Virus record (IMG/VR): IMGVR_UViG_3300019754_000001
Span: 29,905-93,904 of that record
Direction: 5' to 3' (one strand)
Source of the DNA: a virus
DNA length: 64,000 nucleotides
In this document: one piece after another, positions 2,909 to 23,964 of the stretch
How positions within the stretch are numbered: position 1 is the stretch's first letter
Layout: each line of letters begins with the position of its first letter
Made by a program: the position numbers and the translations under genes
The notes under the pieces: generated by a model
What the model saw: the letters and a program-made list of their open reading frames with translations, nothing else
What the model was told of the DNA's origin: nothing
Databases searched by the model: none

Positions 2909-2924
2909 TTAAATATTATAGGAA

Positions 2925-3725: not shown

Positions 3726-3726
3726 T

Positions 3727-4032: not shown

Positions 4033-4092
4033 CTATAATTATATTCAATAGATAGCATAGACAAATTAAATTCTTACTTAAATAATATTAAT

Positions 4093-4395: not shown

Positions 4396-4409
4396 AGATT
4401 AGCACAAAC

Positions 4410-4457
4410 AAAAAAAGGGGAACCCTACCATTACGGTAGAGTTCCCCTATTTTTTTT
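4410..4457. terminator. bidirectional intrinsic terminator between convergent modules
   Basis: A-run, aggggaac-c-ctacc / attac / ggtag-a-gttcccct stem (4416-4448), T-run. Confidence 0.9.
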
Positions 4458-7400
4458 ACAACCACCTCTGGAACATAGCCAATCCAGGGATTGCTCTAAA
4501 AGTTCCTTTAATGAGGTAAGTTTCATCATGTCTAGCATCATCGCTAGTTGCGTATTTAGTAACCACGCTAGGAATATTGACTACATTGTCAATTGTTCTT
4601 AGAAGTGGGGATGGATTCTTAAACATATCCATAAGAGCTTTAGGGTTCATATAGAGTGATACATCATCTTGCAACCTAGATACTGTCTTATATGCTAATC
4701 TGTAACCTTCAGCCTTCTCATCTTCATCATCAAATGCTAAATTAGCTATCAACATAGCAGCACTCATCATAAGAAACCATTGAATCTCCTTCAAGTTTCT
4801 TCTCATGTTGTCTAAATCTGTTTGCATCTCTTTATTATCTGCATTAAACTCTTCTCCAACTGCTAAGTTCTTTAATAGTATTGATTTCATTATCTTAACA
4901 CTATTGGCAAAGCCTAAGTCTTTATAGGTTCTATATCTACCCTTCACAGGGTCTCCCATCTGGTCATCTTCTTTATAAGTTTCTATTCTAGTTGCAATAC
5001 CCTCAGCTATCCAAGATTTAAGAGCTAATGTAGCCCTCCCTATTAAATACTTCTTAGCTTGCATAGGGGAGGAGGGGTCATAGTTACCATGAACCCTCTT
5101 AATTAGCTGTATTAGATTGTTTCTCTTCTTTGTAAAGCTATTTGACTTAGTAGCATCATACATAGTATCCCATTGCTCACTGTCTAAAACTTCTTCTGAC
5201 ATGTTAGCGTGGTTATCATAAGACTCCCACAAGCTAACTTCTGTGCCGTCTACAGTTTGAACTTTAGTGTGCATTAGATTAGCAACCAACACAGCAGCTT
5301 GATTTAAATATTCAGCCCTTTTAGTAAGTTCCATTGGGGCAGCCAAGCCAAGTTTCTTATTATGCTCTTTAATCTTAGAACTCCCAGAGGCATCCTCCAA
5401 CAAGTCAAACATAATACCATATTTTGCCATAAGACTTCTAACTTTAGTAGAAACATCATCAACACGTCCTGTAGCAGATCTCTTCATTGAGTGCTTTAAT
5501 ACACCCATAGCTCTATTAAGTTCCTGCTTAGTGAAATACCTACCAGAAGCAGCTTCTACACTATTTGATATATACCCATATAAAGTATTTGTAAGTGCTG
5601 AGGAAGCATTCCAACCCAAAGATGTAAAAAAAGTTAACTTTAAAGCTTTATCGAATGCCTTGACGGGTGATACAAATCCAGTATCTTGTACCGCATCTTT
5701 CCTTGCCTGTATACTTAATTTTCTTTCTTCATAATCTTCTTTTTCTACTCTGCCGTGCATCATATCTAGCTCTAATTCATTCTTTTCTTTTTTTAATGCT
5801 TTTAATGTTTTTCTTGCCTCTTTTGTTAATCCTACCTTGGTTGATAAAATTCCACCCTTATTATGGCCTTTATTGTATAATATATTATCTATTTCATACT
5901 CTAACTGCCTAACAACATTAAGTTTTTCTCCCTTACCTATCTTATTTCTTATAATGCTATTGGATTTTGATTTTTCTATTTCTATTGATTTTTCTACCAT
6001 CTCCTTTCCTATTGTTAATATATCTTCTACTGCTGATTTTCTTTTATAGTTAATTGCTGAAAAGGAAAACATTTTAAATGCTTTTATAACATCAGAAGAC
6101 TTGCTATTAAATTCTCTATCGTAGTCACTTTTTATACTATCTCTAGTTCCTTTAACTACATCTAAAATATCTTTTTGTATTTTTATTGATGCTTCCGTAG
6201 CCCCTTTACTAGTAATGTGGCCATTAAATACAGACTCTTGTCTTATATAGTCTTTTTCAGCCTTACTTAATGCAACTCTTAATTTTCCTACAGTATCCTT
6301 AGTAAACTTAATAGGAACTGATTTTATAGGCTTACCGTTACTATCTCTCAACTGAGAATCTAAATCATCCTGCTCCTCTGAAAGGCCCCCATAGACTCTA
6401 TCTAATAGAGACTTTCCTGTAATTACACCTGCTATACCCTCATCTCTAACTTTTTCAAGTATGTCTTTATTTACCTGAGGTAAGTGATTATGTTGTAAAG
6501 CGTATGCAACGTGGGGTGGAAAGTAATCCTTAAGGTTGTTAATATTCTCTGTTATAAAATTATAAAGCTTTCCGTATGTTTCTGGATTGTTTTGTATAAA
6601 TTCATAATCTTTATCATACCATTCACTCTTTTGTCCATTTACCTCACTTTTTGGTGCATAGGATAGAAATCTTGTAACACTGGTAAAGTTAGTAGTTTCT
6701 ACATTATTACTAGTTAACTCTTCATATAACTGCATTGGGTTATTATAAGATTCCCACTCAGCTATCTTACCCTTGTATTCTGCTATTGTTTTAAATCCTA
6801 CCCTCCCCGCATCGTGGTATCTCTGAAAGGTTTCAACAACTGCCACTTTAGATTTATTATAAGATGTAATCTTCTTTTCCATAGATGATACCAATCTCTC
6901 TCCTACAACTTCACCTAATAGGTCTTTTATCTTAGCAATCTCTTCATTTCTAGCGTCCTCATTATCATTACCAAAAAGGATATTATAGTTAGGTAAATAA
7001 ATATTATCCATAAAGTCTTGATAAGCTTTCTTTTTTTGATTCTTCTTTCTAGCATCCTTAACCCTATTAAGTTGACCTAACTCTACTCTTTGTTTAGATT
7101 TCCAATCATAGTAGCTTTGTGAAAAAACATCTACAAGATTTTTAGTTATATTACCATCAGCATCTTTCTGTAACACCCTCTCGTTAAAATCTTTTCCATT
7201 CTTATCGAATCCAGTCTCCTCTAATATCTTAGTCAATTGAATACCAATAGTTTCCTCAAATTCAGCCATAATGTTTCTATTAGTGTCTTTAAGGACTCCT
7301 GATAGATAAGATACTAATTTATTATCTACCCTAGAACTATCCATTACAGCAGACCAAAGTAGCCCTACATCTTTAATTTCTGTTAAATCTTTTAATGGTA

Positions 7401-9057
7401 TGGGGTCTCCATTCTTATCTTTAGCCAAGTCACTTATAACAGTTCTAGTTAAATTGAGAAGTGTATTATCTAATTCATTTAGCTTAGCTTCAATTCGTTC
7501 CGCTTCGTCAGTTCGGGGAGAATCTTCAAGCCTATAAATAGGTTTACCTGAAGACTTGTTAATACCCTTGACTTCTAAAACTTGACTGACCATGGAGCGG
7601 AGGGCAGATATCTCCTCACTAGCTTGTTTAACATCTGTTACAGTTACTCTTTTGTTACTCGTTAATACACCCTCTATATTAGATATACTTTTTTCTGCAA
7701 TATCTATTACATTTTTAACTAAGGCGCTCTTTTTTAATTTCTCTATATTTTCTTTTATCTCTTCTATTCTAACCATTACGGATTCCTTAGTCTCCGGATT
7801 CTTACTTATTGAATTATAAAGACTGTTCTTTCTAACTTTTAATTCATTTATAGCTTTAGTTAGAATGGCATCAGAAATCGGGTCTATATTACCATCAGTG
7901 TCTTCTCCCCCAAAGTAGCTTGACTCAAATACATCAGTAGATACATGGTCGTCAAAGAACATTATATCATCATCTATTAATTCTTCATTCTCTATTAAAG
8001 ACCCTTCATAGTCTTCAACTGTATCAAAGGCCGCATTAACATTATCATTAAGACCATTAAAAAAGTCATCGTCATCAATATCGTCTTGAGACCTATTATT
8101 AGTCTGTCTATATCTAGCCTCCCCTTCCAATATCTTTCTAAGCCTTGCATTGTTGTTTTCTAGCTTATTTGTGTATAAGTAATCACTAGTTGTATTTAAT
8201 ATTGCATGCAGTGCTGACCCTTTATTTACACTGATATTTAACAGTCCACTAATATAGTCTAATATACCTTCCCACACTGACTTCTTAGAGTTGAATTTAA
8301 TACCATTTAAAAAATCTCTAAATACACCTTCAGTTAAGGCATAAGATAAAAACTCATCAACACTTTCAATTACTACTGTATCAAGTCCATAACTTTCCAT
8401 TAAGTTCCGGTCTTCCAGTAGTCCTTTTACATGTTCGTATACCTCATCTATTCTTTCTTTAAATATCTGCTCTTCCTCAGTTTTAGGGTTTAGTAATGCC
8501 GCCACTGTAATAACATGTAGCATCTCATGAGTGGCTGTTAATCTAAACTCTTCCTTACTCACTGTCTTATCTAAAAATAATCTTATCTTGTCGTTTTCTA
8601 TCACTTCTATAAAACCTGCTGTGCCTTCAGCTCTATCTTCATCTGTGAGTAAAGTAGTATCGTTTGTGTATTCTAAAACTGTTCCAGATTCTTCGACTTT
8701 AGATACTAGCTTATCGAAGAGGGGGTAGTTTGGGTCTTCTGAATCTACTTCTCCATAGTCTTCAGTTAGGTTACTTAAGGTGAGGGGCTCTTTACCAATT
8801 ATTTCGTTTACTATTCTATCGACACCTGCTATTGATTCTATTAGTATTTCTTTATCTAGTGGTATATCCACTCCATCAAACGTATCCCAAACCTTATAAG
8901 CCATATCCATAGCTACCTTATCATTACCTTCTCTTAGGGCTCTTTCTCCCTCATTTCTAAATTCACTATTAGTTAGCGGTTTACCATCAAATAGTGTTAC
9001 AATTTCGTTGAACTCAAAGCGAGCTTCACCGTCATTTATATTTGGACATTTTGCCAT
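4456..9057 (-). CDS. large virion cargo/ejection protein with N-terminal zincin-like metallopeptidase domain
   Basis: 1533 aa; HEMLH at 8515-8529 plus downstream EF motif; position after the vRNAP gene as in crAss-like phages. Confidence 0.75.
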   Translation of the reverse strand: MAKCPNINDGEARFEFNEIVTLFDGKPLTNSEFRNEGERALREGNDKVAMDMAYKVWDTFDGVDIPLDKEILIESIAGVDRIVNEIIGKEPLTLSNLTEDYGEVDSEDPNYPLFDKLVSKVEESGTVLEYTNDTTLLTDEDRAEGTAGFIEVIENDKIRLFLDKTVSKEEFRLTATHEMLHVITVAALLNPKTEEEQIFKERIDEVYEHVKGLLEDRNLMESYGLDTVVIESVDEFLSYALTEGVFRDFLNGIKFNSKKSVWEGILDYISGLLNISVNKGSALHAILNTTSDYLYTNKLENNNARLRKILEGEARYRQTNNRSQDDIDDDDFFNGLNDNVNAAFDTVEDYEGSLIENEELIDDDIMFFDDHVSTDVFESSYFGGEDTDGNIDPISDAILTKAINELKVRKNSLYNSISKNPETKESVMVRIEEIKENIEKLKKSALVKNVIDIAEKSISNIEGVLTSNKRVTVTDVKQASEEISALRSMVSQVLEVKGINKSSGKPIYRLEDSPRTDEAERIEAKLNELDNTLLNLTRTVISDLAKDKNGDPIPLKDLTEIKDVGLLWSAVMDSSRVDNKLVSYLSGVLKDTNRNIMAEFEETIGIQLTKILEETGFDKNGKDFNERVLQKDADGNITKNLVDVFSQSYYDWKSKQRVELGQLNRVKDARKKNQKKKAYQDFMDNIYLPNYNILFGNDNEDARNEEIAKIKDLLGEVVGERLVSSMEKKITSYNKSKVAVVETFQRYHDAGRVGFKTIAEYKGKIAEWESYNNPMQLYEELTSNNVETTNFTSVTRFLSYAPKSEVNGQKSEWYDKDYEFIQNNPETYGKLYNFITENINNLKDYFPPHVAYALQHNHLPQVNKDILEKVRDEGIAGVITGKSLLDRVYGGLSEEQDDLDSQLRDSNGKPIKSVPIKFTKDTVGKLRVALSKAEKDYIRQESVFNGHITSKGATEASIKIQKDILDVVKGTRDSIKSDYDREFNSKSSDVIKAFKMFSFSAINYKRKSAVEDILTIGKEMVEKSIEIEKSKSNSIIRNKIGKGEKLNVVRQLEYEIDNILYNKGHNKGGILSTKVGLTKEARKTLKALKKEKNELELDMMHGRVEKEDYEERKLSIQARKDAVQDTGFVSPVKAFDKALKLTFFTSLGWNASSALTNTLYGYISNSVEAASGRYFTKQELNRAMGVLKHSMKRSATGRVDDVSTKVRSLMAKYGIMFDLLEDASGSSKIKEHNKKLGLAAPMELTKRAEYLNQAAVLVANLMHTKVQTVDGTEVSLWESYDNHANMSEEVLDSEQWDTMYDATKSNSFTKKRNNLIQLIKRVHGNYDPSSPMQAKKYLIGRATLALKSWIAEGIATRIETYKEDDQMGDPVKGRYRTYKDLGFANSVKIMKSILLKNLAVGEEFNADNKEMQTDLDNMRRNLKEIQWFLMMSAAMLIANLAFDDEDEKAEGYRLAYKTVSRLQDDVSLYMNPKALMDMFKNPSPLLRTIDNVVNIPSVVTKYATSDDARHDETYLIKGTFRAIPGLAMFQRWL

Positions 9058-9135
9058 TTGTATATAGTATTAAAATATTTTATTATTAGCCATAGAAGAA
9101 GACAATATTTCTACTATTGTAGTAATCCCGGCGGA

Positions 9136-9192
9136 ATTAGTGTTGTACAGGCTACCAACCCATAGGAAAGGCAACCTGTACACTTAACTAAT
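9136..9192 (-). promoter_or_regulatory. RNA stem-loop directly after the vRNAP stop codon
   Basis: Minus strand tgtacaggttgcc / ggtagcctgtaca, 13 bp with two G-U pairs valid only on the minus strand; no U-tract. Confidence 0.6.
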
Positions 9193-12100
9193 CTAGCATT
9201 TCTTATGCTCGTCCCTTATGACATCTCTAACTTGTACTAAGCTAGGATTGACATTTGAGGTCATTGAACTTGTATTAACTCTAGGCTTATACTCACTAAC
9301 TTTCCCATTAGCAAATGGAAACTCCTTATAACCTTTACTTAATACCCACCTAATTAAATGCTCCTCGCTAAACTGACCATTAACATATTTATTAGAGTAG
9401 GCTTGTACACTACTATCTAATAGAATAGAAGCTCCAGCCTCAACAGCTACACTTAACATCTCTACAGTTCTTTTAAACTTAGCTTCAGATCTACCGTGTG
9501 CCCCAACACCACCAGATATACTTGCAAAGACCTTATCATCTTTAGTATATGTTTCTGAATTTACAGGTATATTATTATTACGTGCATCAAAGGCATAAGT
9601 AAGAGTACTAGAACTTTTAGGATTATAAGCCCTACTGTTAAAGTCTTTACCAAAGTTAGCAAATACATAAGCTGTAGCTCTAGCCGCTTTATATTGATCT
9701 TTTCCAGTCTTATCCATCGATAGTATGAACTTAGTTGTTCCATTCTCCTTTTCACTATCAATACCATTATTGATTAAATAACTTAAAACAGTAGCATGAG
9801 ATGGCTGTCCTAACTCTTTCCAGTATAGCAACTTCTTACCTTTAAGCTTTCCAGAGTTAATTAGATCAACTATCCATTCCTTTCTAGCCATTAGTTGTGG
9901 ATATTCTTTATCAAACTTATCAGTAGTTAACCAATCATGGTAGTTTTGAACAGACTCTGCTATAGTTCCTGCAGGTATAATAGCACTAGTAGAGCTCATG
10001 TGAGAAGAAGGGTTACCGAAGTGCTTCTCTCCACCCTTTCTTAGGGTATAAACCATACCATTCTCTTTAGCATATTTTTCCATTCCTTGATAATCTAAAC
10101 CCTTATCTGTCATGAAAGAAGGTATACCATTCATACCCCTAATTACAACAGTTTCATTAGCAGTAGTCTTACCCATCTTACTAATAGCATGTAATTTTTC
10201 ATGCTTTGGAGGACTATCAAATAGTGTTTGTTGTACAGCAAGTTTTTCTTCTAAACCTCTTATCTTTTCTGCAACTTCCATATACTCTCCCATTATAATG
10301 TTTCTTGATTGTTTATCTATCATTGTGTTGGAAGCAAATACATACTCATTAGTAGTCAAGTCAAAAATGCTATCTGTAGGCATTACTGCAAATTCCTTTC
10401 CAAGCGTAGTTACTTTTCTGTGTGGTTCTTTATTAAGTAATACCTCTACAGCTACTCGCTTAGTTATTGCAGGGTTTGTTATTCTTCTCAAATCATTACC
10501 TGGCCTTATTTCATATACTGAGTTATTGTAGCCAGTTCCATATGTTTTTCCATTTATAGTCACAGTATCATATACTACATTCTTTGTTTGTTTATCTTTT
10601 TCTATTTCATTAAAACCTGAAGTAGCTATAAAGAAGTTACCAAAAGCTTCATATAATGCAGTACCTTTTTTAAGTTTAGCTCCTATCATGTTCTCAAACA
10701 GGTTAGTCATATACTTAAGTATTCTCTCCCCAAAGGTTGATTCTTTATATGGAGTCTCTTTATGGAAATTTATAAACTCTCTATTTGTTAAAGCTACCAT
10801 AAATTCATTAAGGTTGGTTAGTGGCTCATACCTTCCAACATCTTTTAAATCAGACTCCTTCTTTTCCTTTATATTTGCTTTTATCTTATTAATTTCTCTT
10901 TTGTGGATATCAGCTAAGTGCGCTCTGACAGCTTCAATATTACCCATTGCAATCCTTATATCTCTAAATTCGTCACCCTTAAGCTGTCCGGATATATATC
11001 TATCTACAAGTTGAGATGTTTGAGTGTGAGCTATTTCATGAAGTAATACCTCTTCCAGTTCTGCTTTGAATATATTAGGTGCTAGATTTCTAGACCCCAT
11101 CTTATTAACATTGAGGCTTATTGAACCTCCAACTTGCTGACCCCTATGCTGAAGGGTTGGATCTTTTACATATTTAATACCGTTAGGCATTAACCATTTA
11201 AGGTCTTTTAAAATCCTTGCTGCAGGTATTAGATGTGGTGTAGTTATATTATCCAATGCACTCATAAAAGAACTTACGCCCTCCGTGCCATTAGAAAAGT
11301 AGCCAGTTACAGGGTCTCCTTGAAGTGCTACTGTTTTATCAGCTCTGTAGTTTGCAACCTTCTCTTTTACATTTGGGTTATTGTAATCAAATACAGACTT
11401 GCCCTCATACTCTTCACCTAGATTTTCTGACATCTTCTTATGACCTTTTGTATTCATTTCTAGATATATAAAACCGTCCTCCATTGGAACTCTCTCATAT
11501 AAACTATCTTTATTCTTTCCTCTGACATGTGCATATAGGGGAGGATTTGAGTTCTTAGAGCTAAACACTACTTTATCTGTATATAAAACTTTATTAGTAT
11601 CAGGGTCATAGTTATTTTTATTTTCTATTCCATCAATCTTATTAAGCTCTGGAGTACTCTTTGGATAATGTTCTACATACTCTTTAAATACTTCCACGGG
11701 GTTTATATTATTAAGTAGTGTAGAATTTAATCCAAGGCCATGACCTGATTCAATTAATATCTTTAAAGGTCTAATCATCTTAATGGAGCGTGGGCTAAAC
11801 TTAGCACCCTCCATTAAACTGTACCTGACTAAATCAAGAGCTAAAGAACGTTGCTCAGCATTACCTCTATAGAGTTCCATCCAGGATGCTATCAGCATTG
11901 TCTGTGCGTTCTGAGTTAATGCAAAGGTATTTATCTCTACGAAGGAGGGGGCATCCAGTGTCTTTCCTTGTGAAGGGATTAAGTTACTTATGAACAAAGA
12001 ACCTATTGGATTATTAGTTCTTTTGTATCTATTAATCCTATTAGCTAATGAGTTACTTCCATACAACATATCAACCATCAACTGTTTCTTATCTATCTCT

Positions 12101-15100
12101 TCACCATTATCCTTAAACAAACTACTTTCATCTGTTTTCTTAAGCAATAGGTGTGAGAGCATTGATTCATGAAGTTGTTTTGATATAAATGGAATATCTG
12201 AATAAGATAGGGAGCTGTTATTATCTAGTACCATATCAAGAAGTGTATTGAACTTGGGGGTAGCACCAACACTCATAGGAAAACCTCCTATATTAGTACC
12301 CCATATAGCACGAGCCGTGTTAAGAGAATTATATACTCCATAGCCAACTTCAGTAAGTTCACCATCACCATTTAATACTAGATTATCAAGACCTACTATA
12401 TCAGACTTGCCATTTATAACTTCAGAGTATATTTTAACTTTTTGAACTATACTGCTGATATCTTTACCAACACCCTTAGTTTCAATTTTAAGTACACTAT
12501 TTGCTATCCCTATTGTTTTTGCAGGATTATACAGTGCTGCAAAAATAGAAGCTACTTTATACTGAGCTGAATTACTTTGACTCTTTAGTTCTTCTGTTGT
12601 TAGCGGACCCTCCACCCTATTCTCTTCATAGGATTTTAATACAGACTGTATAATAGCCATATCTTCACTACTATTTCTTTTGCCAAGTTTATTACTTGTT
12701 GTTTTTAACTCTTCTGTTATTTCCTGTATTGCAGGCTGTGTCATTATTAAGGCTACTGTTTCAGCTGAGAGTGCTTTATTCTTACTTTGAGTTTCTCCTT
12801 TATCTACCATTTGTATTAATAAATTATACACACCGGAATTTACAGCATCATAACCAAGATACGCTAAGTTTCCATTATTAGCATTATCAACAGCTTCTGA
12901 TAGCAACATCATTAAGGAGTCAGCATTGCTCCTTACTCCACCACCACTAGTTCCTAAATCTATATCAGATAAAGTAAGTACTTCACCTTCTGATTCCACC
13001 TCTAAGAAAAGTTTACTACCATCCTTATCAATAGGATACAATCCCTTATTCTCGGCCATTGCTAAAAACACTAGAGCATTAGCTTCAATAGCTACACCTA
13101 TTTTACCAGCCTGAGCATTATTGTATTCTTTTTCTGAGTATTCAATACCCAAAGGGACGAATCGCTTAGTACCATCTCTGTACTGTTCTTCTTCCTTAGC
13201 TTTAGCAACCTTAGCAAAGTTTTGAAAGTCTGGTAAATCTAAAGTAGTTAACATCTTTTTAGTAATATCCGGATGACTTAAAACTGCCTCATGTAATCTT
13301 ATATACTGATTTTGTAATAACTTACTCTCTTCCTTAGCTGTTACATTTTCTTCAGATATTATCTTTAGTGTTTTATTGCCGTCAGCATCTTCTACATTTT
13401 TATAGTTATACATATAAGTATAAAGGTGGTCTACGTCAAAGTCAGACCCCATCTGTGCAGTAATCTCATCAGGCAGTATTATGAGAGACTTCATTTGGGG
13501 AGGTAAAAATCCAACTATCTCTATGTTAGACATGGAACTAAATCCCTGATTAGGAATACGCGCTCCTATTAACGATAACAACTCTTTATCTATTTTAGAC
13601 ATATCAAGCTTTCCGCCACTGCCTATAAAATTGTTAATGTCTTCATTAAACATCCAAGGGAGTATTACTTGCATCTTTTGAATACCTATAACCTTACCTT
13701 TCTTGTTTAATATAATATCTCCAGCCTTTAGCTCTGTATCAAACTCACTGGTAAATATAACATTATTTTCATTATCACTCAACTTTGATACATTCATCTT
13801 ACCCTTAATCCCAAAAGCAGCTCCTTGTACAAAAGACCTTCCTCTAAGTTCAGGTCTTAGTATTTTTTTACTAATTGCTGAATTGATTTTTTGAACTATC
13901 TTATTACGTGATGCTGACATATCTAAAGGCCAGGCGAATGCTCCATGCTTAAACTTTAAAGATTGTAGTTCATTATCACTTATACCCTCATTGACAAGTA
14001 TCTCTTTGAAAGCATCTCTAAACTTAGCTTGGTTAGTTACAACTCCATTCTTTATTCCAAAGGAGTGCTCTAACTTACCAAGCCCTTCCTCCATCATTCT
14101 TACTTTAATCTTATCTCTCATCTCTCTTATACCCTTACCATCTTTAATAACGTGGTCATCTATAAATAAATCAAAACCTGCCATTTCTGAAATACCCATA
14201 GTAATAAGTTGATTCATCTGAGACACTGAGATTGTCTTATAATCCTCATGGTTTCCTTCTTCTTGTTGAGTTTTCAATCCCTCTCTCTTAACTATAGTAG
14301 GCTCCATCAAATCTATCTTATCTTTATTTAAACCAATTGCTCTAGAATTCCCCTCATGGTCATTTTCATAATTAAACACATCCCACTTATCTCTAGAACC
14401 TGCCTTAACTGCCGATTCAAAAGCTAAATGTACAGTGGTTAAATTACCAGTTTTCTCTTCATTGTTATCATCTATTAGATACTTTCTTTCCTCTCGTTCC
14501 ATCTTTTCTCTAATCATATCTATTTCTAGGTCTTTTGTATATTGGGGTATTAATGGAAAGAATGAAGACTTTACAATCATCGTATCATTTGAAGAAGTCT
14601 CCTTATTGAAGTTGTTTGAGGTATACAAAGGCTTTTGTGGAATTATGTCCATCTGTGTCAGTCTAGCTATTTCTGCATCCTCTCCAGAGTTTAATAGTAA
14701 TGGCTTGTTAGTTTTATAGCTTTCCATTATCTTCTTGTTAATACTGTCATACACTTCTTCTTTAATCTTACCCCTCTGGGCCATAAATACTATATAGCTT
14801 TTAAGAGTTACTAACTCTTGTGCATCTGTACTATTAACATTCTTATACCCCTTAGCTATTTCAGGGCTTAGGGATTTTTTATACTTATTATACATTCTAG
14901 AAGTATACTTATCATTAAGAACAAAATAAGCTATGTTTTCATAGTTATTAATTATTCTTTTACCGTTAACCATCTCAGCAACTTCTGTTGATGGGTCCAT
15001 TCCAGTACCTATTAAAGAACCTAACCTCTTAAGGTAAGTAGTCCATGTACCAAACTCATCACGTTTAAAATACTGTGCTGGGTCAGATAACAGCTGTACA

Positions 15101-17940
15101 ACCTCACCTGTTCCTATCATATTATTTATAACATAATCAGCAGCTATTGCAGTTAAAGCATAGGCATCTGGATTAGTTATATTTCTTTTTTCTAGAGTTT
15201 CAGTATCCAAACCCATTCTTTTTAAGTACTCTTTATTTAATGTCTTTGTTATTGGATATGATTTAAAATTTTCATTCAATATATCAAACACATGCTTAAC
15301 TTCTTGCTGTATATCCTTATGTACCTCATCTAGCATAAGTTTTACAGTATCGTTATTAAATATTATACCATTAGAACTTAGTATTGAAGTAGCTGGGTCT
15401 GTACTATCTAAAAGTTTATTAAGTGAAGGAAATAAATAAAACCTGTCACCACCCTTAAGAAGTGCTATATCCATTCCTTTTCTACTGTCTTCTTTTCGTT
15501 TATTTATAACTCTAGTAATTCGTTTAGCTTCTCCTCTTATAAGATCTTCAAGAGCATTGTTTACTTCTATTCTTGTTATAGTATCACCTATAAGACCCTC
15601 CTCATACTTATATTTAATATCTTTTCCATTGGCATCTTTTAACTTAGTATTATTATCCTTGTCTGCAAATATACCTCTAGGGCCAGTTATTCCATCAGTT
15701 TTACCTACCCCTGTTATATTGATACGTGGCCACTTAAATATTATATTTCTACTCTTATCTGAAAACGTTAACGGCATTAGGTGCATGAATTTATCATTAC
15801 CGTTATTGGCCATTAAAGATAATCTCATAACGAGTTTCTCTAGTGGGGATGCTTCTTTTCTTGTTATGTTAACATTATTAGAAGTAGATATTGCATCTAA
15901 AACCCCCATAACAATATCCCCCTCTTTTAAAGCACCTCTCTTTAATAGTTTAACAACTCTAGAAGTTGAAGTAAAGTCTCCATCTTCCATATCTTTCATA
16001 AATTTACTATCTTTAGTTGTTAACTTCTTTACTAACTGTGTGGCAAAACTAGGTAATCCGTATTTAGCTACTTGGTTATCTGAAGAGTTTAGAAAGGTCT
16101 GGTCTACGTGTTCTGCAGATTCTTCATAAAGTGTCTTTAATACTATTTTTACCATCCTATCCTCTAAAGGGTTAGAGTTGTTACCAACAAATGAAGAGGT
16201 TGTGTCAATATCTGTTATGTTTGATAGTGATGTTATAAAGTTAAACCCTCCCTCATTATCTGTAGATATAAATGTTATGGGATTCATACCTGACTTTAAG
16301 AATTTAGCAGCCTTATCACTTCCATTTTGTATATACTTTTGTGGGTTTCTAATAAGGTCTTCATATTGAGAGGAGGTAAGCTTAATACCGTATTGATCTA
16401 ATATATCCATAATCTCAACAGCGTTATCAAGCATATGCTGTACACCAGCATTCCTATCAGCTTTACTAAAATCAATACCAAACTTCCTTAAAGCCTCAAC
16501 AGCTAAAACACCAACTCTATTAGATAGCTCAATCATCTTACTTTCATCTAGAACAAAGTTGTTATTTGATATCTTTAATATCCCAGCCTTGCCTTCAGAC
16601 TCTTCATGCTTTTCTATTTGATGCTCTCTAGCTAGGTTTAAGGAACTTCGGGTGGCGGAAGTGGAATCAGTATTTATAATCCTATACTGTCGTTCTACTG
16701 TATTTGGAGTTTCAAAATCTCCATCATTTAGTTCTCTAGAGTATTCTTTAACTGTAACCATGTTATGATTTTGTAGATTAGTAGCTACATAGAATAAGTT
16801 TCTAAACCTATTATACTCTGGTGTAGTTGGGTCTTTTAGCTTTGCAGCTATAGACATTAAGACTGGGTCTTGTGTCTTCTCTAACATTTCAACCCTCTGA
16901 CTTATCGTACCGTATGAATCAGCTAGGGCATTAGTTATTTTACTAAATACTACCTTGTGGCTATAAGTATCAATGAACCCTAAAATGTTTGCTTTGAGTT
17001 GGGGAGTGTATTTCTTACCATCTTGAACATAAGTTACTTTAGGTATATTCATAAGATAGGTTTTAAATACAAACCCTACAGTATCTGATACTGGGATAGC
17101 CATTTTCTTAGCATCATCCCAAACAGCACCAAAGACCTCTTCACCAAACATATCTGAATCATCTTGTGTTTCAGCATTCTCTGTTACAGTCTCAGTTGTT
17201 AGTTTAGTATCATCTTCTAAGTTATTATCTTTAGTAGTTTCGTCCTTATCTTTATTTATCTTTTCTTCCTTATACCCTTCAGATATTAATCTACCTTTAA
17301 GTAGCTTTTGAAAAGACTTAAAAGCATCAGGCTCAAGTAGCTTATTAACGGAGGATAGAAAAAGCTCTCCCTTGGTGCGTTGTTCTTTTGTTATTGTTTT
17401 ATTTGCCAGTCCTTCTTTATATTCTTGTTGTGCTGTCCTTAACATTTTTTCCATTTCAACAGCAAGTGATTTAGTACTAATAGCATCATTAAATAAGCTC
17501 TTTAGTACAATACTTTCTCCCCACCCCAAGATAGATTCTACTTCTAAAGTATTAAATCCTTCTATTAGCGTATCAGGGTCTTCTATATATTCATCAGCTT
17601 CTAATCCATAACCTTCTACTCTTTTAATGACTTCCTCATATACAGGCTCTCCATTTTCATCTACTCTTCCGTTATAGTTTTCAGGATTAAATTCCCAATC
17701 TCCATAGGTATCTTTATACTTATCTGTTCTTACAGCTATTGATACTTCTACAGCTCTTTTTATATTTTTTGTTTTATCTAGAACAGTCTTAAATAAATAA
17801 GATGCTTCACCATTAGATGCTTTTTCAAATGGAATCTCATCTTCTTTTAAGTTATACTTCTTAAAAAGACTTAAAGCAGTATCCGAAGATACTACTTTAG
17901 TCAATGAGTTAAATACTTTTGTTCCTTTAGGACACTTCAT
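9193..17940 (-). CDS. virion-packaged single-chain two-barrel RNA polymerase (crAss-like) with C-terminal zincin and DUF4326-like domains
   Basis: 2915 aa; RIPNQG and GSDFDVD (13429-13443) catalytic region; HEIAH at 11026-11040. Confidence 0.9.
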   Translation of the reverse strand: MKCPKGTKVFNSLTKVVSSDTALSLFKKYNLKEDEIPFEKASNGEASYLFKTVLDKTKNIKRAVEVSIAVRTDKYKDTYGDWEFNPENYNGRVDENGEPVYEEVIKRVEGYGLEADEYIEDPDTLIEGFNTLEVESILGWGESIVLKSLFNDAISTKSLAVEMEKMLRTAQQEYKEGLANKTITKEQRTKGELFLSSVNKLLEPDAFKSFQKLLKGRLISEGYKEEKINKDKDETTKDNNLEDDTKLTTETVTENAETQDDSDMFGEEVFGAVWDDAKKMAIPVSDTVGFVFKTYLMNIPKVTYVQDGKKYTPQLKANILGFIDTYSHKVVFSKITNALADSYGTISQRVEMLEKTQDPVLMSIAAKLKDPTTPEYNRFRNLFYVATNLQNHNMVTVKEYSRELNDGDFETPNTVERQYRIINTDSTSATRSSLNLAREHQIEKHEESEGKAGILKISNNNFVLDESKMIELSNRVGVLAVEALRKFGIDFSKADRNAGVQHMLDNAVEIMDILDQYGIKLTSSQYEDLIRNPQKYIQNGSDKAAKFLKSGMNPITFISTDNEGGFNFITSLSNITDIDTTSSFVGNNSNPLEDRMVKIVLKTLYEESAEHVDQTFLNSSDNQVAKYGLPSFATQLVKKLTTKDSKFMKDMEDGDFTSTSRVVKLLKRGALKEGDIVMGVLDAISTSNNVNITRKEASPLEKLVMRLSLMANNGNDKFMHLMPLTFSDKSRNIIFKWPRINITGVGKTDGITGPRGIFADKDNNTKLKDANGKDIKYKYEEGLIGDTITRIEVNNALEDLIRGEAKRITRVINKRKEDSRKGMDIALLKGGDRFYLFPSLNKLLDSTDPATSILSSNGIIFNNDTVKLMLDEVHKDIQQEVKHVFDILNENFKSYPITKTLNKEYLKRMGLDTETLEKRNITNPDAYALTAIAADYVINNMIGTGEVVQLLSDPAQYFKRDEFGTWTTYLKRLGSLIGTGMDPSTEVAEMVNGKRIINNYENIAYFVLNDKYTSRMYNKYKKSLSPEIAKGYKNVNSTDAQELVTLKSYIVFMAQRGKIKEEVYDSINKKIMESYKTNKPLLLNSGEDAEIARLTQMDIIPQKPLYTSNNFNKETSSNDTMIVKSSFFPLIPQYTKDLEIDMIREKMEREERKYLIDDNNEEKTGNLTTVHLAFESAVKAGSRDKWDVFNYENDHEGNSRAIGLNKDKIDLMEPTIVKREGLKTQQEEGNHEDYKTISVSQMNQLITMGISEMAGFDLFIDDHVIKDGKGIREMRDKIKVRMMEEGLGKLEHSFGIKNGVVTNQAKFRDAFKEILVNEGISDNELQSLKFKHGAFAWPLDMSASRNKIVQKINSAISKKILRPELRGRSFVQGAAFGIKGKMNVSKLSDNENNVIFTSEFDTELKAGDIILNKKGKVIGIQKMQVILPWMFNEDINNFIGSGGKLDMSKIDKELLSLIGARIPNQGFSSMSNIEIVGFLPPQMKSLIILPDEITAQMGSDFDVDHLYTYMYNYKNVEDADGNKTLKIISEENVTAKEESKLLQNQYIRLHEAVLSHPDITKKMLTTLDLPDFQNFAKVAKAKEEEQYRDGTKRFVPLGIEYSEKEYNNAQAGKIGVAIEANALVFLAMAENKGLYPIDKDGSKLFLEVESEGEVLTLSDIDLGTSGGGVRSNADSLMMLLSEAVDNANNGNLAYLGYDAVNSGVYNLLIQMVDKGETQSKNKALSAETVALIMTQPAIQEITEELKTTSNKLGKRNSSEDMAIIQSVLKSYEENRVEGPLTTEELKSQSNSAQYKVASIFAALYNPAKTIGIANSVLKIETKGVGKDISSIVQKVKIYSEVINGKSDIVGLDNLVLNGDGELTEVGYGVYNSLNTARAIWGTNIGGFPMSVGATPKFNTLLDMVLDNNSSLSYSDIPFISKQLHESMLSHLLLKKTDESSLFKDNGEEIDKKQLMVDMLYGSNSLANRINRYKRTNNPIGSLFISNLIPSQGKTLDAPSFVEINTFALTQNAQTMLIASWMELYRGNAEQRSLALDLVRYSLMEGAKFSPRSIKMIRPLKILIESGHGLGLNSTLLNNINPVEVFKEYVEHYPKSTPELNKIDGIENKNNYDPDTNKVLYTDKVVFSSKNSNPPLYAHVRGKNKDSLYERVPMEDGFIYLEMNTKGHKKMSENLGEEYEGKSVFDYNNPNVKEKVANYRADKTVALQGDPVTGYFSNGTEGVSSFMSALDNITTPHLIPAARILKDLKWLMPNGIKYVKDPTLQHRGQQVGGSISLNVNKMGSRNLAPNIFKAELEEVLLHEIAHTQTSQLVDRYISGQLKGDEFRDIRIAMGNIEAVRAHLADIHKREINKIKANIKEKKESDLKDVGRYEPLTNLNEFMVALTNREFINFHKETPYKESTFGERILKYMTNLFENMIGAKLKKGTALYEAFGNFFIATSGFNEIEKDKQTKNVVYDTVTINGKTYGTGYNNSVYEIRPGNDLRRITNPAITKRVAVEVLLNKEPHRKVTTLGKEFAVMPTDSIFDLTTNEYVFASNTMIDKQSRNIIMGEYMEVAEKIRGLEEKLAVQQTLFDSPPKHEKLHAISKMGKTTANETVVIRGMNGIPSFMTDKGLDYQGMEKYAKENGMVYTLRKGGEKHFGNPSSHMSSTSAIIPAGTIAESVQNYHDWLTTDKFDKEYPQLMARKEWIVDLINSGKLKGKKLLYWKELGQPSHATVLSYLINNGIDSEKENGTTKFILSMDKTGKDQYKAARATAYVFANFGKDFNSRAYNPKSSSTLTYAFDARNNNIPVNSETYTKDDKVFASISGGVGAHGRSEAKFKRTVEMLSVAVEAGASILLDSSVQAYSNKYVNGQFSEEHLIRWVLSKGYKEFPFANGKVSEYKPRVNTSSMTSNVNPSLVQVRDVIRDEHKKC

Positions 17941-17943
17941 ATG

Positions 17944-20900
17944 TTAACATTCTGTTTTATTCTTATTTGGTGTGTTATTGAATCCCTTAACATCTATAAC
18001 AGTAGTTGCAGAAGAAAAGGATAAATTAAAAGCATTTGGAACAGTAGTACTCTTAGGAGTGTTATCTATATTAACCAACTCAAAAGATGTAACAGAGTTG
18101 TTAAAGTAAGATACTTCTACATGTCCACCAGCTCCATCAGAGTGTACATCCTCTGGAAGATTATCATTATCAAATTCTTTATCTGTTTTGTACATCTTTG
18201 ACTTTATTGTCTTGCTTTCTAAATCTGTTTTTATATTCTTAAATAAAAAGTCTTTATAAGTTCCTGAAGCATATTGATACCTTATTCCAGAAGCAGTAGT
18301 AGTATGCCCTGTGGGTATCCTACTTTCTCCTCTCTTAGTCCCTAGTTTATTTAAACCTAGTAACTTATCACTAGTGTTTATAGGAACTTTTCCAAGAGCT
18401 TCTTTGAATGCTTGTTTTTCTTCTTCTGTTGAATCTTCAGTGAGACTCATACCAGTACCTACTTTAGCCTGATTAAACAAGTGAATACCAGTAACATTTC
18501 CGTCACCATCCTTATCCATGTATACTATTGAGGGTCTTCCTGATATATTGTCTGCAGCTATAATAGCATCTGATTTCTTTTTCTTATCTACAACTATTAA
18601 ATTAGATATAGTGTTTATGTGATTTTTAGCATTATTACCTTTTAAAATCTCATCCATTCCAGCCATTACTGCATCTAATGCTTTACCATCATTTACTTCA
18701 GCTATACTATTTTTAATTATGAACCTTCTAACCTTCTCCCCATTTGGAGCTTTTAAGACTATGGCAGTCCTTCCCTTGAAGTCACTAAGGAATTGTGAGT
18801 CATCTCCAGTCTCATGTATCTCTCCATTTGAACCCATAATGCCTTTATCTGTGACTAAGGCTATGTCGAAAAACTTTGGTGTGGATTGTTCGTCTTTGAA
18901 TACATCACTTAGTGGTTTCATTTCACCACTTTGACTAGTATTTAAATGGCCTGTACCTTTATCAACTACTTCTAACATTTTATTGATATATGTTCCATCC
19001 TCTTCTGTTTCAGTATTAGCTAGTATTGTTCTTAGCTCTCTAACTCTCCCTTGCTGTTCTGCTAAATTATTCTCTTTATTGTCACCAACTGTTAAATAAT
19101 TAACTGCATCCAGTGTGGGTACATATCCAATGAGTTCTCTAACTTTCACTCCGTCAACATAGACTACCTTATATATAGCTATTGGCATATTATTAGATAT
19201 CCAAGCTTCTCCCTCCGTTCCTTTCTCTTTAGCTTTTTTCCTTGAGTAATTCTCCCAAGAGTCCTCTATAGTTTTTCTTTGCAACTCTCCCTCTTTATTG
19301 CTCCAATCAAATAGTTTTCCTTTATATCCTACATCAGCAACAATCTCTAAAGTTTCTCCAACTTTTATTAAATGTTTACTTTCAGTTGGAACACCATCCT
19401 TGCTGACGTCTATTAATGTAAGGTTATTAACATCCCAAACATGACTAGCTCTAGCGATTGCCATACCATCCATTCTTAAAACTGCTGGTTTACTTAATTC
19501 ACTTTTCTTTGGAGTAGTTACTTGATTAGCTAATTCTAAACTATCTCCTTCAAGTACTTCAGTATCCACATTAACTACTTCTAGCTCGTTACCTTTAGGC
19601 CTCAATTCATTTGCAGAAAAATCAACATCTGCTTTATTAGCTTCTGCTAAAGCATTAAAATAACTATTAACATGCTTAATTAGTCTATTTAGAGTTTCTA
19701 ATTGGTTATCTTCGCTTTGTATTAAGCTATTAAATCCGGAAGCCTTTTCATATAATTCAACTATCTTATCAATAGCGTCTTTATGCCCCCTAACTAAATC
19801 TGATGAAGTAAATCCATTATCTTTTATAAATTTACCAATGCTATTAAACATATCTACTGAATCTAATATGTTAGAAGACTCTACAGTAGAAGACGAGTAA
19901 AGCTTTCCTCCATCAATATCTTTTAGAGTGGTTGATATACTATTATTAGTATCTGTCCTATTATCTATAAAATCAGTATAGGACATAGCATTAACACCAT
20001 ATTTGCCAAGCTTCTCTTTTAAAAGGGTAGTAATCATATTGAACGGTACATCATTACCAGCTTTAGAGTCTGATAAAGCTTTAACTAAAGTCATTTGATC
20101 CATTACTGAGAGTATGTCAGCTAGTATGCCCTTTTGATCTTCAACTGGCATGCCATCCTTAAAGTCTAGTTGCTCTGAATCCTTTATAGAACTAGCTAAG
20201 TGCACAAAGTACTTAAATAGGTCTGAGTTTCTATCAATAGAATTAGGTATTATTTTACCATCCTTAAACTCACTTATCCACAGTAGTAAGTTACCAACAG
20301 CTCCTTTAACCTGAACACTATTTCCATCAGCATCCTTTATAGTAGCTGTAAAGACACTCCCTCGAGTATCCATAGGATTAGCTCTAAATAAGTGTGTTAT
20401 TATCTTATGTCTATTATTGTCTCCAGTAAGTTCTTGCAGTGCATCATCGTCAGATAAGTAAGTAGAACCGTCCCCATCATCTTGAAATCCATACAACTGT
20501 ATTATATCATCCAATGCCATTACAAACTTATCGTTTTCAATTACTCCATCTTTTTCTAATTTAGTCTTTATATCAACATCAGTAAGACCTACTTCAAATA
20601 TCTTTGAAATACTTGTCTGTGATGCGTCCTTGCTTGCTATAAACTTTTCTAACCTAAGCTTATTAAATGACTCAGTGCCTTTATGTTTACCATCCTTATT
20701 TAAGTCTAAAGGCTTTGGGGGTGTAGGGATAACCTTTTTATCAATATTATCTTTCTTTTCTATTACTTTCTTCTTATTCTTAGCATCCTTTTCCTCATTA
20801 GCTTTCTTTTGCTTTTCTACCTTACGTTTCTTTAAGTTAGCTAAATTCGTAAGTTCTGCTAATTGAGACCTAGCCATTTTTAATTTAGCATCTTTAAACT

Positions 20901-23900
20901 CTTTTCTCTCTAGTTCTGCCCTTTTCTTTAGAGATGCTTTTAGGGTTGAGGAGCCTTGATTAGAGGTAAAATACGCATACTGATTAAATGCATAATCTTC
21001 AGCTACTTGTAATTGCTTTTGATATATTTTATCAGATGCTTTTTGTATTACATTATTTTTACCATTACTTATATTTCTTAAACTTCTTATATTTTCTTTT
21101 AACTCTCTTAATATCTCTGGTGGAAATTTATTATCAAACTCTATCTTATCAACATCATCTTCAATTTCATCAATTAAAGACTGTTCTATATCAAGTCTCT
21201 TTCGTTTTAAAACTTCCTCCAAGTACTCTATTGATTTCTCTGTACCTACCTTTTCTAACTTACTATGTTCTTTTTTCTCATATCCTGCCAATACCTTCTT
21301 TTGGTTGTCTAACTCTTTCTTAACATTGTCAATTGTAGTGTGTACATTTTTCTCACGTTGGCTTCCAAACCATATTGCTTTATTTATCTTTTCTTTTAAG
21401 TTACTTGGTATCTTTTTATTACTCTCTCTATTGTTTTTAAGACTGCTGTGAAAACTCAAGAGTTTATCATCAATCACTTGATTATACTCTCTATTAACAT
21501 CAACACCGTCAACTATCTTAGGTTCTTTCTTTTGTTTATATAACTCATCTATGTATTGTTGTTGAGTTTCTTCCGAAGCACTTAACAAAGTTTTTAAAGA
21601 CTCAATAGCGTTATACATAACCCCCTTACTTTCTTTGGGTCTATTTTCCTTAGCCGCTTTATTAGAAAATTCAGAATCCATTCCTTCCAGCCCCTCTTTA
21701 TATACTTCATCATATAATACTGAAGTAACATAATCGGTGGCTTCTTTAGTTAGGGGGTCACTATTAGTATCGTCATTCTCTATTTGCTTTTGCATCTTTT
21801 TATTTAGCTTGGCAAATCTTTTATTGTTTATCCATATATCAAGTATCTTCTCAGGATATTGGTATACTTCATCACTTGAACTATCAAATTTACTCTTTAA
21901 TACTTCATACTGTTCTCTTGTAGCCTTAAGTTCACTTATAAACTCGTTATTGACTTCTTTAAAATCATCAAGATTTCCATCCGAATCCTTAGCTTGAGCA
22001 TATCCTGCAGCCATTGCACTACTCTTCCCAGAATACTTAACAATGTTATCCTCTATTATTTTAGCTTGTTCCTCCATAGAGATAAGCATTTCACTTTGCT
22101 TCTCGCTCAATCCTCCGGCGGCTTCACCCTCCCCCTTTAACTTGTCAATGCTTTTAAGCACCTCATCAAGATCTTTTTTGTATTCTTCTCCAAGGTCGTT
22201 AGTGTTACTCATCTGATTAGCCTCCCCCAGTGTTTGCTCTATATTCTCACTAAAGCCTTGAGTGACGCTATTAAACTTTGTCATATCAAACAAGTCTTGT
22301 TTAACCTCATCTAAAGACCTACCATCTTTAGTCATTCCACCATTCTGAGCAGCTTCTGCCATGTCCTGGTAGCTTTTCTTTACAAAGTCTATATCTTTTA
22401 TTATAGTGTTTCTATATTTTTCATAGTCTTCTTCAGCTTTTGTTCTAAGTCCCTTAGCTGTTCCAAATTTCCATTCCTTGACAGGCTTCTTTGTTACAGT
22501 GCCATCTGCATTTTTAACTTCTTGATATATTATCCCATTCTCATCATACTTGTTTGTTCTATTTGGAGTTCCTCTCTCCCTCCCGGCCTTAAGAGCACCT
22601 CCCATAAAGGCTCCCCAGAAGGCAGCTTCTAATCCTTCTTTAGAAGTAGAACCTTTAAACCAGGCGTCTAAGTATGTTAGGTTATCAATATCTGGAGAGT
22701 TACCTGTGAGTTTATTTACTTCCTTATCTACTTGTGCACTTCCAACCTCTGCAGCTCCCTCCAACATAGCTTCCTCAAAAGCTTCTGATAGCATTTCTTT
22801 AGGGTAGCTTCTAATACCTACCTCTTTATTTACTGCTTTCTTTAATTCTTTTCTTATTACATCATCAGATACTCCTGAAGCTTTTAACCTTTTAACATAC
22901 TGCTCTGTTGTCTCTGTTGCTCCTTTAATTCCTTTATTCTTAAGCTTAAGTAGATTCTTTTGCTTTTTTAGTATGGATGAAGTTGTCATCCTTGTAGCAG
23001 TTAAAGGAACTAGGTTTGTAACCATTCCGAGGGCAGTTCCTAACATTACAGATGTATGGGCAGCCTGTGTAGCTATTTCTAATTTATCCTCCTCTGATAT
23101 ACCTTCAACACCTGCCATCTTCTCAATAGCTGCATCATATACTTGAGCCCCTGTTCTACCAGCCTCTGCAGAACTTAAAACTGCTGCATTGGCTACTTCT
23201 GATAACTTAGGTACAAACTTTATTGCATTATATCCTTTTATTGTTTTGCTTGATAATAGTGCGGCCTTATTAGCCATTTTAACTGATAGCTCTAGTCCTT
23301 TAGAAGTTCCAGCAGCTACCTTAGCAGCCCTGGATAGAGCCTTACCTGTAACAGATGCACCTCTAGCCATAGCACCTCCAACGCCTCCAGTAACAGCTTC
23401 AACAGCCATAAAAGCACCAACAGATGCTACTCCATCTGATATGTTATTAACCCAATAAGCATAGTCAGAAAAGTCAGACGTTCCAGGACTTTGTTGATAT
23501 ACATCTCTTTTAAGACCGTTAATCATCTCTCCAAAAGCAGTTATATCATTAGTGTAAGGATTATCCACAGTATATCCAAATATACCTTCCTTTACTATAG
23601 CTCCTAGTGTTCCAACATCTGTAACTATCTCTCCTACAAATCCAGGTAATGTATTAGTAATACCTCTCCATGTTTGCTCTGTCCAGTGCTGTTCTTGGGC
23701 TCTAAGACTGCCTAAATTATCTAAATCAGTATTCTTTACTAGGTCTAAATCTACATAGCTTTTAAACTCTTCTAAATTAACCTTTTCAGGGTCTATACTA
23801 TTTATACTTATTCCACTAGAGGGTCTTAATTTAATTGTATCTTGTAGCTCTTCTATCTCAATCTCTCTAGCTGTTTTATTGTTTGGATTGCTTTTAGGTG

Positions 23901-23964
23901 CTTTCCTTATTCCTACTTTCTTATCAAATAGTGAATTAGTTTGTACTTTATCGTCTTCTTCCAT
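17944..23964 (-). CDS. large virion cargo/ejection protein
   Basis: 2006 aa; Gly/Ala-rich hydrophobic N-terminal segments and coiled coils; directly upstream of vRNAP. Confidence 0.7.
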   Translation of the reverse strand: MEEDDKVQTNSLFDKKVGIRKAPKSNPNNKTAREIEIEELQDTIKLRPSSGISINSIDPEKVNLEEFKSYVDLDLVKNTDLDNLGSLRAQEQHWTEQTWRGITNTLPGFVGEIVTDVGTLGAIVKEGIFGYTVDNPYTNDITAFGEMINGLKRDVYQQSPGTSDFSDYAYWVNNISDGVASVGAFMAVEAVTGGVGGAMARGASVTGKALSRAAKVAAGTSKGLELSVKMANKAALLSSKTIKGYNAIKFVPKLSEVANAAVLSSAEAGRTGAQVYDAAIEKMAGVEGISEEDKLEIATQAAHTSVMLGTALGMVTNLVPLTATRMTTSSILKKQKNLLKLKNKGIKGATETTEQYVKRLKASGVSDDVIRKELKKAVNKEVGIRSYPKEMLSEAFEEAMLEGAAEVGSAQVDKEVNKLTGNSPDIDNLTYLDAWFKGSTSKEGLEAAFWGAFMGGALKAGRERGTPNRTNKYDENGIIYQEVKNADGTVTKKPVKEWKFGTAKGLRTKAEEDYEKYRNTIIKDIDFVKKSYQDMAEAAQNGGMTKDGRSLDEVKQDLFDMTKFNSVTQGFSENIEQTLGEANQMSNTNDLGEEYKKDLDEVLKSIDKLKGEGEAAGGLSEKQSEMLISMEEQAKIIEDNIVKYSGKSSAMAAGYAQAKDSDGNLDDFKEVNNEFISELKATREQYEVLKSKFDSSSDEVYQYPEKILDIWINNKRFAKLNKKMQKQIENDDTNSDPLTKEATDYVTSVLYDEVYKEGLEGMDSEFSNKAAKENRPKESKGVMYNAIESLKTLLSASEETQQQYIDELYKQKKEPKIVDGVDVNREYNQVIDDKLLSFHSSLKNNRESNKKIPSNLKEKINKAIWFGSQREKNVHTTIDNVKKELDNQKKVLAGYEKKEHSKLEKVGTEKSIEYLEEVLKRKRLDIEQSLIDEIEDDVDKIEFDNKFPPEILRELKENIRSLRNISNGKNNVIQKASDKIYQKQLQVAEDYAFNQYAYFTSNQGSSTLKASLKKRAELERKEFKDAKLKMARSQLAELTNLANLKKRKVEKQKKANEEKDAKNKKKVIEKKDNIDKKVIPTPPKPLDLNKDGKHKGTESFNKLRLEKFIASKDASQTSISKIFEVGLTDVDIKTKLEKDGVIENDKFVMALDDIIQLYGFQDDGDGSTYLSDDDALQELTGDNNRHKIITHLFRANPMDTRGSVFTATIKDADGNSVQVKGAVGNLLLWISEFKDGKIIPNSIDRNSDLFKYFVHLASSIKDSEQLDFKDGMPVEDQKGILADILSVMDQMTLVKALSDSKAGNDVPFNMITTLLKEKLGKYGVNAMSYTDFIDNRTDTNNSISTTLKDIDGGKLYSSSTVESSNILDSVDMFNSIGKFIKDNGFTSSDLVRGHKDAIDKIVELYEKASGFNSLIQSEDNQLETLNRLIKHVNSYFNALAEANKADVDFSANELRPKGNELEVVNVDTEVLEGDSLELANQVTTPKKSELSKPAVLRMDGMAIARASHVWDVNNLTLIDVSKDGVPTESKHLIKVGETLEIVADVGYKGKLFDWSNKEGELQRKTIEDSWENYSRKKAKEKGTEGEAWISNNMPIAIYKVVYVDGVKVRELIGYVPTLDAVNYLTVGDNKENNLAEQQGRVRELRTILANTETEEDGTYINKMLEVVDKGTGHLNTSQSGEMKPLSDVFKDEQSTPKFFDIALVTDKGIMGSNGEIHETGDDSQFLSDFKGRTAIVLKAPNGEKVRRFIIKNSIAEVNDGKALDAVMAGMDEILKGNNAKNHINTISNLIVVDKKKKSDAIIAADNISGRPSIVYMDKDGDGNVTGIHLFNQAKVGTGMSLTEDSTEEEKQAFKEALGKVPINTSDKLLGLNKLGTKRGESRIPTGHTTTASGIRYQYASGTYKDFLFKNIKTDLESKTIKSKMYKTDKEFDNDNLPEDVHSDGAGGHVEVSYFNNSVTSFELVNIDNTPKSTTVPNAFNLSFSSATTVIDVKGFNNTPNKNKTEC

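Follow-up and report, generated by a model that had tools for sequence, protein, structure and literature searches.

Paired cysteines at the junctions of the giant RNA polymerase cargo proteins in a crAss-like phage and its relatives: a candidate tip-to-tip link

Crassviruses are the most abundant phages in the human gut. A 64,000-nucleotide (nt) stretch from the genome of one crAss-like phage (IMG/VR record IMGVR_UViG_3300019754_000001, positions 29,905 to 93,904), referred to here as the window, carries three adjacent genes for giant proteins: protein A of 2006 amino acids (aa), protein B of 2915 aa, which is the RNA polymerase (RNAP), and protein C of 1533 aa (p1533). The parent viral record, of which the window is a part, is 93,904 bp long and complete, with direct terminal repeats. 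In related phages the same three modules can be found fused into a single chain, and the question raised by this locus is what may hold them together where they are encoded separately. The comparison presented below strongly supports the proposal of a pairing at each junction, between the C-terminal cysteine (Cys) of the protein before it and the N-terminal Cys of the protein after it, which would put the three proteins in one chain.

Cysteine positions and identity of the three giant proteins

Protein A (17944..23964, minus strand), the first member of the proposed chain, has a single Cys, which is its last residue (codon 17947-17949, followed by TAA). Protein B (9193..17940, minus strand), a two-barrel virion RNA polymerase, has Cys3 (17932-17934) and the last-residue Cys2915 (9196-9198) and no other; its tail reads D-E-H-K-K-C. 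Protein C (4456..9057, minus strand), the last member, has only Cys4 (9046-9048), within the N-terminus MAKCPN. A first-pass annotation, made from the DNA letters without database searches, had reported these positions, and the translations of the open reading frames (ORFs) show them to be exact. In total, there are 4 Cys in 6454 residues, all at junction-facing tips, and the outer ends of the chain are Cys-free. Were 4 Cys distributed randomly over 6454 residues, the probability of finding every one ≤4 residues from the four junction tips would be ~4e-11. It should also be noted that other ORFs of the window contain up to 3.2% Cys, and that many of the structural ones are Cys-poor too.

The A, B and C genes are the RNA polymerase cargo block of a divergent crAss-like phage. 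The gene order in the window is muzzle, cargo 1, cargo 2, A, B, C, which is the crassvirus arrangement, and according to the ORF list all three genes lie on the minus strand, co-oriented with the muzzle and cargo 1 genes. The core of protein B (residues 700-1850) matches PDB 6VR4 chain A, the phi14:2 gp66 protein, at 4.6e-17. In an alignment of 16 B-type proteins at 19-37% identity (alignment A2), the catalytic residues D1500, D1502 and D1504 of the DFDxD motif are invariant, and C3 of protein B forms an invariant column beside them. The best database relative of the core is 44% identical, the cultured relatives are ~23% identical, and beyond the core protein B carries a long C-terminal extension of ~1065 residues.

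Fused RNAP giants carry, at their C-terminal end, sequence that aligns with residues ~400 to ~1530 of protein C (E down to 1e-94); the homologue search for C returned two relatives. In P0023, the closest relative at 33% identity, MAKCPN is kept, although residues ~14-400 of p1533 have no match. Hence, the tip is under selection of its own. For protein A, no homologue was detected in the homologue search of the protein library; its assignment comes solely from position, size and Cys pattern, and it occupies the same place as phi14:2 gp67 and crAss001 gp47. None of the three proteins has a match in Pfam or PHROGs, or in the PDB when the full-length sequence is searched, and searches of viral and metagenome contigs with the window's B or with P0025 found no related loci. 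The K-C-P shared by the N-termini of B and C, to which the first-pass annotation had drawn attention, is real in the window (MKCP and MAKCP), and nothing else detectable is common to these two N-termini. It is not a general motif, however, as the tips of relatives differ (CPN.., C.Y..NG and CNF.AP).

Cysteine tips and gene fusions among relatives

If the terminal Cys residues work in pairs, they should be present or absent together at each junction. Scanning IMG/VR with alignment A2 gave 80 loci, 71 of them unique after ORF calling, with start codons set by rule. At the first (A/B) junction, Cys is found on both tips in 24 loci and on neither in 36, and the tips are discordant in 3; at the second (B/C) junction, the corresponding counts are 32, 26 and 0. 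The Cys rule is likewise obeyed in 12/12 reference crass-like genomes (phi14:2, FpV4, cr118_1, cr114_1, DAC15, crAss001, p-crAssphage, crAss002, cr6_1, cr113_1, cr10_1 and cr7_1), with Cys-free outer chain ends in all of them. Thus, conservation and pairing in orthologues, on which the original proposal depended, are borne out both in the references and in the contigs (60 concordant vs 3 discordant loci, and 58 vs 0), and so is its statement that the free outer ends lack Cys.

Importantly, the A gene of DAC15 and crAss001 lies on the opposite strand, and yet its product carries a single Cys, at -2, and Cys5 stands at the start of the polymerase. An artefact at the DNA level of the junction is excluded by these two genomes, since the rule holds in them regardless of strand. 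They also modify the earlier claim of a chain linked in gene order: the Cys-linked chain has comparative support, but gene order is not essential to it. Locus L074 has two small ORFs, of 168 and 210 aa, between B and C (15262-16387); both tip Cys are kept, and the C partner, 1.5 kb downstream, still begins M-I-L-S-C.

Several departures from the rule concern how genes were called. The discordance of L027 is a start-site problem, the second Met giving M-S-N-C, and crAss002 gp33 obeys the rule only if its start is Met33 (M-S-C-T-P). The gp33 start given in the crAss002 annotation (MN917146, 13101-13210) probably lies 32 codons upstream of the true one; read from Met33, gp33 matches the start of p-crAssphage gp44 (M-S-C-G). 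In cr10_1 (MT774382), an unannotated ORF of >1200 codons runs from ~20857, after the 4460-aa giant, and starts M-K-I-I-C-P-N; it is the missing C-type partner. L053 (break near 9821) has ORFs of 2013 and 2873 aa, without Cys and split inside the polymerase region. It belongs to a lineage of ~4900-aa triple fusions, and the break probably reflects a frameshift, an in-frame stop or a mistake in assembly.

We also observed smaller cargo-like proteins, encoded upstream of the block, that have a single near-end Cys with no obvious partner tip beside it. These are p-crAssphage gp47 (Cys at -1; 2189-4762), crAss002 gp30 (Cys at -7; 2406-4079) and FpV4 gp30 (Cys5; 8975-10771).

The fused forms provide a second line of evidence. 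A search with the polymerase core of a representative library of 1.84 billion proteins gave 1526 matches at E≤0.001, and the Cys counts are based on the 150 listed, namely the window's own B and 149 diverse relatives. These 150 giants contain 249 Cys in 573,200 residues (0.043%), and 150 of the 249 are within 8 residues of an end. The N-terminal Cys is at position 3 in 38 cases, at 4 in 16 and at 5 in 10, and the C-terminal Cys is 0-3 residues from the end, with one exception. The giants occur in four forms: B alone, A+B, B+C and A+B+C.

For the fusion test, 146 complete-looking proteins were classed by the offset of the core and by a C domain at the C-terminal end, the latter detected by phmmer with p1533, P0023 and P0024. 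The C-terminal Cys is present in 0/51 proteins with a fused C domain vs 89/95 without one (Fisher 5e-33), and, for the N-terminal Cys, the figures are 2/75 where the N-extension is long and A-like vs 64/71 where it is short (Fisher 1e-30), both p-values ignoring shared ancestry. Fused forms thus lack the Cys residues, a point that the first-pass annotation had suggested checking. The 26 triple fusions, up to 6187 aa long, have 16 Cys in 133,445 residues. A tree built from the RNAP core shows at least 15-19 changes for each state. Independent pairs were counted on it, and the counts are approximate because the tree is a FastTree one. For C fusion against C-terminal Cys, 8.3 pairs go opposite ways and 0 the same way (median sign-test p 0.008); for A fusion against N-terminal Cys, the figures are 11.3 and 0.2 (p about 0.001). 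A further candidate fusion, in L015, was rejected: it is seen only if TGA is read as Trp, and genetic code 11 gives a normal split there, ...TKC then MSC...

In lineages other than the window's, split tips aligned to fused relatives fall on continuous Cys-free sequence; for the junctions of the window itself, whose flanks are too divergent, no residue-level alignment to fused relatives was obtained. The N-terminal tip of some lineages is a short conserved module of 35-100 aa, C-P-N..W-K.L...G...A.R, which heads C-type proteins (the downstream ORFs of L056, L088 and L092) or B-type ones (P0134 and P0105), and which by its sequence looks like a portable 'acceptor' tip. The comparison says that the same three modules can be joined by a Cys pair or by a peptide bond, the two being interchangeable. 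It also shows Cys at junction-facing ends alone. A disulfide would be the simplest chemistry for the link.

Comparable systems, the proposed link and its alternatives

The same neighbourhood of muzzle, cargo 1, cargo 2 and three giants with the RNAP in the middle is found in phi14:2 (gp67-gp66-gp65) and crAss001 (gp47-gp50-gp49). The Cys pattern of phi14:2 is as in the window (last-residue Cys; Cys3 and a Cys at -1; Cys3), and that of crAss001 is like it (Cys at -2; Cys5 and a Cys at -8; Cys5). The window differs from both in its ~23% core identity, in a protein A without detectable relatives and in the ~1065-residue C-terminal extension of B. By mass spectrometry, crAss001 gp47, gp49 and gp50 were found in virions; they are not resolved in the map, and the capsid cargo zone was given as their location (PMC10172136). 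The annotation of phi14:2 likewise records its block proteins as detected in the virion by mass spectrometry. The A, B and C proteins of the window are, by analogy, probably packed in the virion and injected by the phage. On how the modules are handled, Drobysheva et al., in the phi14:2 polymerase paper, suggest only that fused forms are cleaved.

The closest parallel to the proposed link comes from a different phage. In the Anabaena cyanopodophage A4 (A-4L, KF356198, 1767-10270), consecutive genes encode gp27 (1717 aa), with Cys1715 as its sole Cys, and gp26 (1114 aa), with Cys5 as its sole Cys. In the cryo-electron microscopy structure of the A4 pre-ejectosome, gp27 Cys1715 and gp26 Cys5 are modelled as an intermolecular disulfide, beside a docked C-terminal helix (PMC12002296, PNAS 2025). 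As in the window, these are large ejection proteins with the sole Cys near the upstream C-terminus (-2) and at position 5 downstream, but A4 has one junction instead of two and no RNA polymerase in the chain. Of the other A4 ejection proteins, gp29 has no Cys and gp28 has a C-terminal CxxC (Cys1036 and Cys1039). The A4 disulfide was not generalised by its authors, and no covariation of fusion and split forms is known there. Comparison of A4 gp26-28 with nine crass cargo proteins by phmmer gave no match at E≤10. The window system would resemble the A4 pair in mechanism and is, by this comparison, not a member of the A4 family.

Schitoviridae (N4 gp50-52, DEV gp71-73) resemble the window in that a giant virion RNA polymerase is ejected with partner proteins. 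Their ejection proteins show strong Cys suppression, ascribed to passage through the periplasm (PMC11445570), in agreement with the first-pass annotation's remark that the N4-type virion RNA polymerase lacks Cys. They differ in having no Cys at all, tips included, in a single-subunit T7-like polymerase rather than a two-barrel one, and in the absence of tip pairing; the window, with its terminal Cys and a polymerase of the two-barrel 6VR4 type, stands outside this group.

We consider it likely that tip-to-tip disulfides make the split cargo one unbranched thread, equivalent to the natural fusions. At each of the two junctions, the C-terminal tip of the preceding protein (A, then B) would bond the N-terminal tip of its successor (B, then C) through a Cys-Cys link. 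This link would most likely be a disulfide and would arise in the virion after assembly or release. With Cys 0-3 residues from the C-terminus and at positions 3-5 of the N-terminus, the product would be an almost unbranched pseudo-polypeptide of ~6450 residues with a uniform N-to-C polarity, the covalent counterpart of the single-chain fusions of 5000-6500 aa in related phages. Such a tether would keep A, B and C at 1:1:1 and allow them to leave the capsid as one partly unfolded thread, and the reducing cytoplasm might then undo the links. The terminal placement of the tip Cys may answer a need of this kind, in that an unbranched chain could pass the narrow tail partly unfolded. The avoidance of Cys elsewhere in A, B and C may have the same reason as that proposed for N4-like ejection proteins (PMC11445570). 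A broader idea is that tip disulfides serve crassviruses and A4 alike as redox-reversible substitutes for peptide bonds, permitting ordered threading, disassembly in the cytoplasm and free switching between fusion and Cys pair (at least 15 switches among the RNAP giants sampled); this we hold only tentatively, with confidence a little short of even.

Several points weigh against the disulfide-linked thread. In crassviruses the bond is a prediction from sequence, and the cargo is not resolved in the crAss001 map. Many of the hosts inhabit anoxic and reducing environments, and the cytoplasm where virions are put together is reducing as well, which makes the source of the oxidant a problem. A search for a phage thioredoxin found none encoded; one for an Erv1-type sulfhydryl oxidase was uninformative, the control genomes giving no match either. 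About 6% of the split proteins are without the expected Cys, and the tail Cys is 8-14 residues from the end in crAss001 gp50, cr10_1 and L065. In L034 and L050, which form one lineage, B starts M-S-C or M-E-C while A is without a terminal Cys, and between the two lies an inserted gene of ~400 aa with a CxxC motif (L034, 6309-7535; L050, 6687-7901); this lineage either breaks the pairing rule or uses a different partner. Finally, fusion and Cys states are clade-structured, which the Fisher p-values do not take into account, and the tree-based contrasts, as said, are approximate. On the other side, disulfides are present in crAss001 virions, both in the tail and at the portal vertex (PMC10172136). 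A predicted complex of the N-terminal 600 aa of B (with alignment A2) and the C-terminal 300 aa of A gave an ipSAE of 0.02, with the partner poorly folded, a result that weighs on neither side.

The statistics on pairing and fusion would fit any Cys-Cys-dependent link equally, and the paired tips might instead bridge a metal ion or cofactor, such as a Zn(Cys)4 site shared by two junctions or a heme at Cys-Pro tips, giving a hold that is specific but non-covalent. Such a bridge would suit anoxic hosts, Cys-Pro occurs in 13/66 tips, and the B tail of the window, D-E-H-K-K-C, could be read in the same sense. Two thiolates alone are a weak site, however, and the tips have no conserved second ligand beside them, the tails being Lys-rich and without conserved His, Cys or Asp; moreover, the one solved case with the same signature, that of A4, is modelled as a disulfide. 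We therefore regard a metal bridge as unlikely, if still the most serious of the alternatives. It is distinctly less probable that each terminal Cys acts alone, as an anchor to the portal or capsid interior or as a site of lipid or other modification, with no link between cargo proteins. The apparently partnerless terminal Cys of p-crAssphage gp47, crAss002 gp30, FpV4 gp30 and the B proteins of L034 and L050 are what such a role would produce, but independent anchors are not expected to come and go jointly, as the two tips do (60 concordant vs 3, and 58 vs 0). Lone anchors should also be found at the outer chain ends, where neither the window nor any of the 12 reference genomes has one, and upstream of the N-terminal Cys there is neither a signal peptide nor a lipobox.

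An origin in the DNA or its annotation, through signals for translational coupling, stop read-through or chance in Cys-poor proteins, seems hardly credible. What speaks for it is that A and B of the window are in the same frame with only TAA-CAT between them, and that junction gaps are short, in relatives mostly 0-10 nt. The frames of these junctions show no bias, 19/53 being in frame, and for this reason stop read-through was ruled out as an explanation. The rule also persists where A is on the opposite strand, or where the partners stand 0.5-1.5 kb apart or have further genes between them. Among homologues at 19-37% identity, C3 varies no more than the catalytic residues do, and the chance estimate for the window alone, given above, speaks against coincidence. 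The disulfide-linked thread thus remains the reading we prefer.

Neighbouring features and significance

Two further cargo proteins are encoded upstream of the chain. The protein at the cargo-2 position (726 aa; 23964..26144, minus strand) and cargo protein 1 (619 aa; 26375..28234, minus strand; Pfam PF25725 crAss_CARG1, E 1.6e-8) had both been described as apparently Cys-free, and the counts, zero in each, confirm it. In relatives, 27 cargo-2-sized neighbours likewise have 0 Cys in 19,717 residues. Next to them is the muzzle protein (1402 aa; 28319..32527, minus strand), identified by Pfam PF25731 crAss_MUZ at E 2.9e-93.

The gap at the A/B junction is 3 nt long (17941..17943, minus strand), within TGT TAA CAT ATG AAG TGT, and both ORFs are in the same frame. 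Translated across, the boundary (17932-17949, minus strand) reads T-E-C-stop-H-M-K-C-P, so that read-through of one stop would yield a natural fusion. The B/C spacer is longer, at 135 nt (9058..9192, minus strand), and contains a strong stem-loop (minimum free energy -38.6 kcal/mol, z-score -4.45 vs shuffles), which could be a terminator, an attenuator or a processing site that tunes expression. In p-crAssphage and crAss002, gaps of 130-170 nt precede the giant RNAP gene as well. An antisense ORF of 190 codons with a TTG start, inside the polymerase gene at 15557-16129 (plus strand), is most likely spurious.

Full-text literature searches found no paper on terminal Cys in crassvirus cargo proteins or on a link between these proteins. 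A link of this kind is already known from A4; a rule across the whole order, a chain of three proteins with the polymerase as the middle one, and the exchange between fusion and Cys pair are not. The tip rule is of practical use, in that it corrects start codons and locates partner genes, as with crAss002 gp33 and cr10_1. Its wider interest lies in how crassviruses pack and deliver a cargo of >700 kDa, including the polymerase that starts infection, when this cargo is invisible in the crAss001 map. A covalent tether, if true, would explain both the stoichiometry and the ordered delivery of the cargo, as well as the existence of the block as one, two or three genes, and the single case of A4 would become a general principle for phage ejection proteins.

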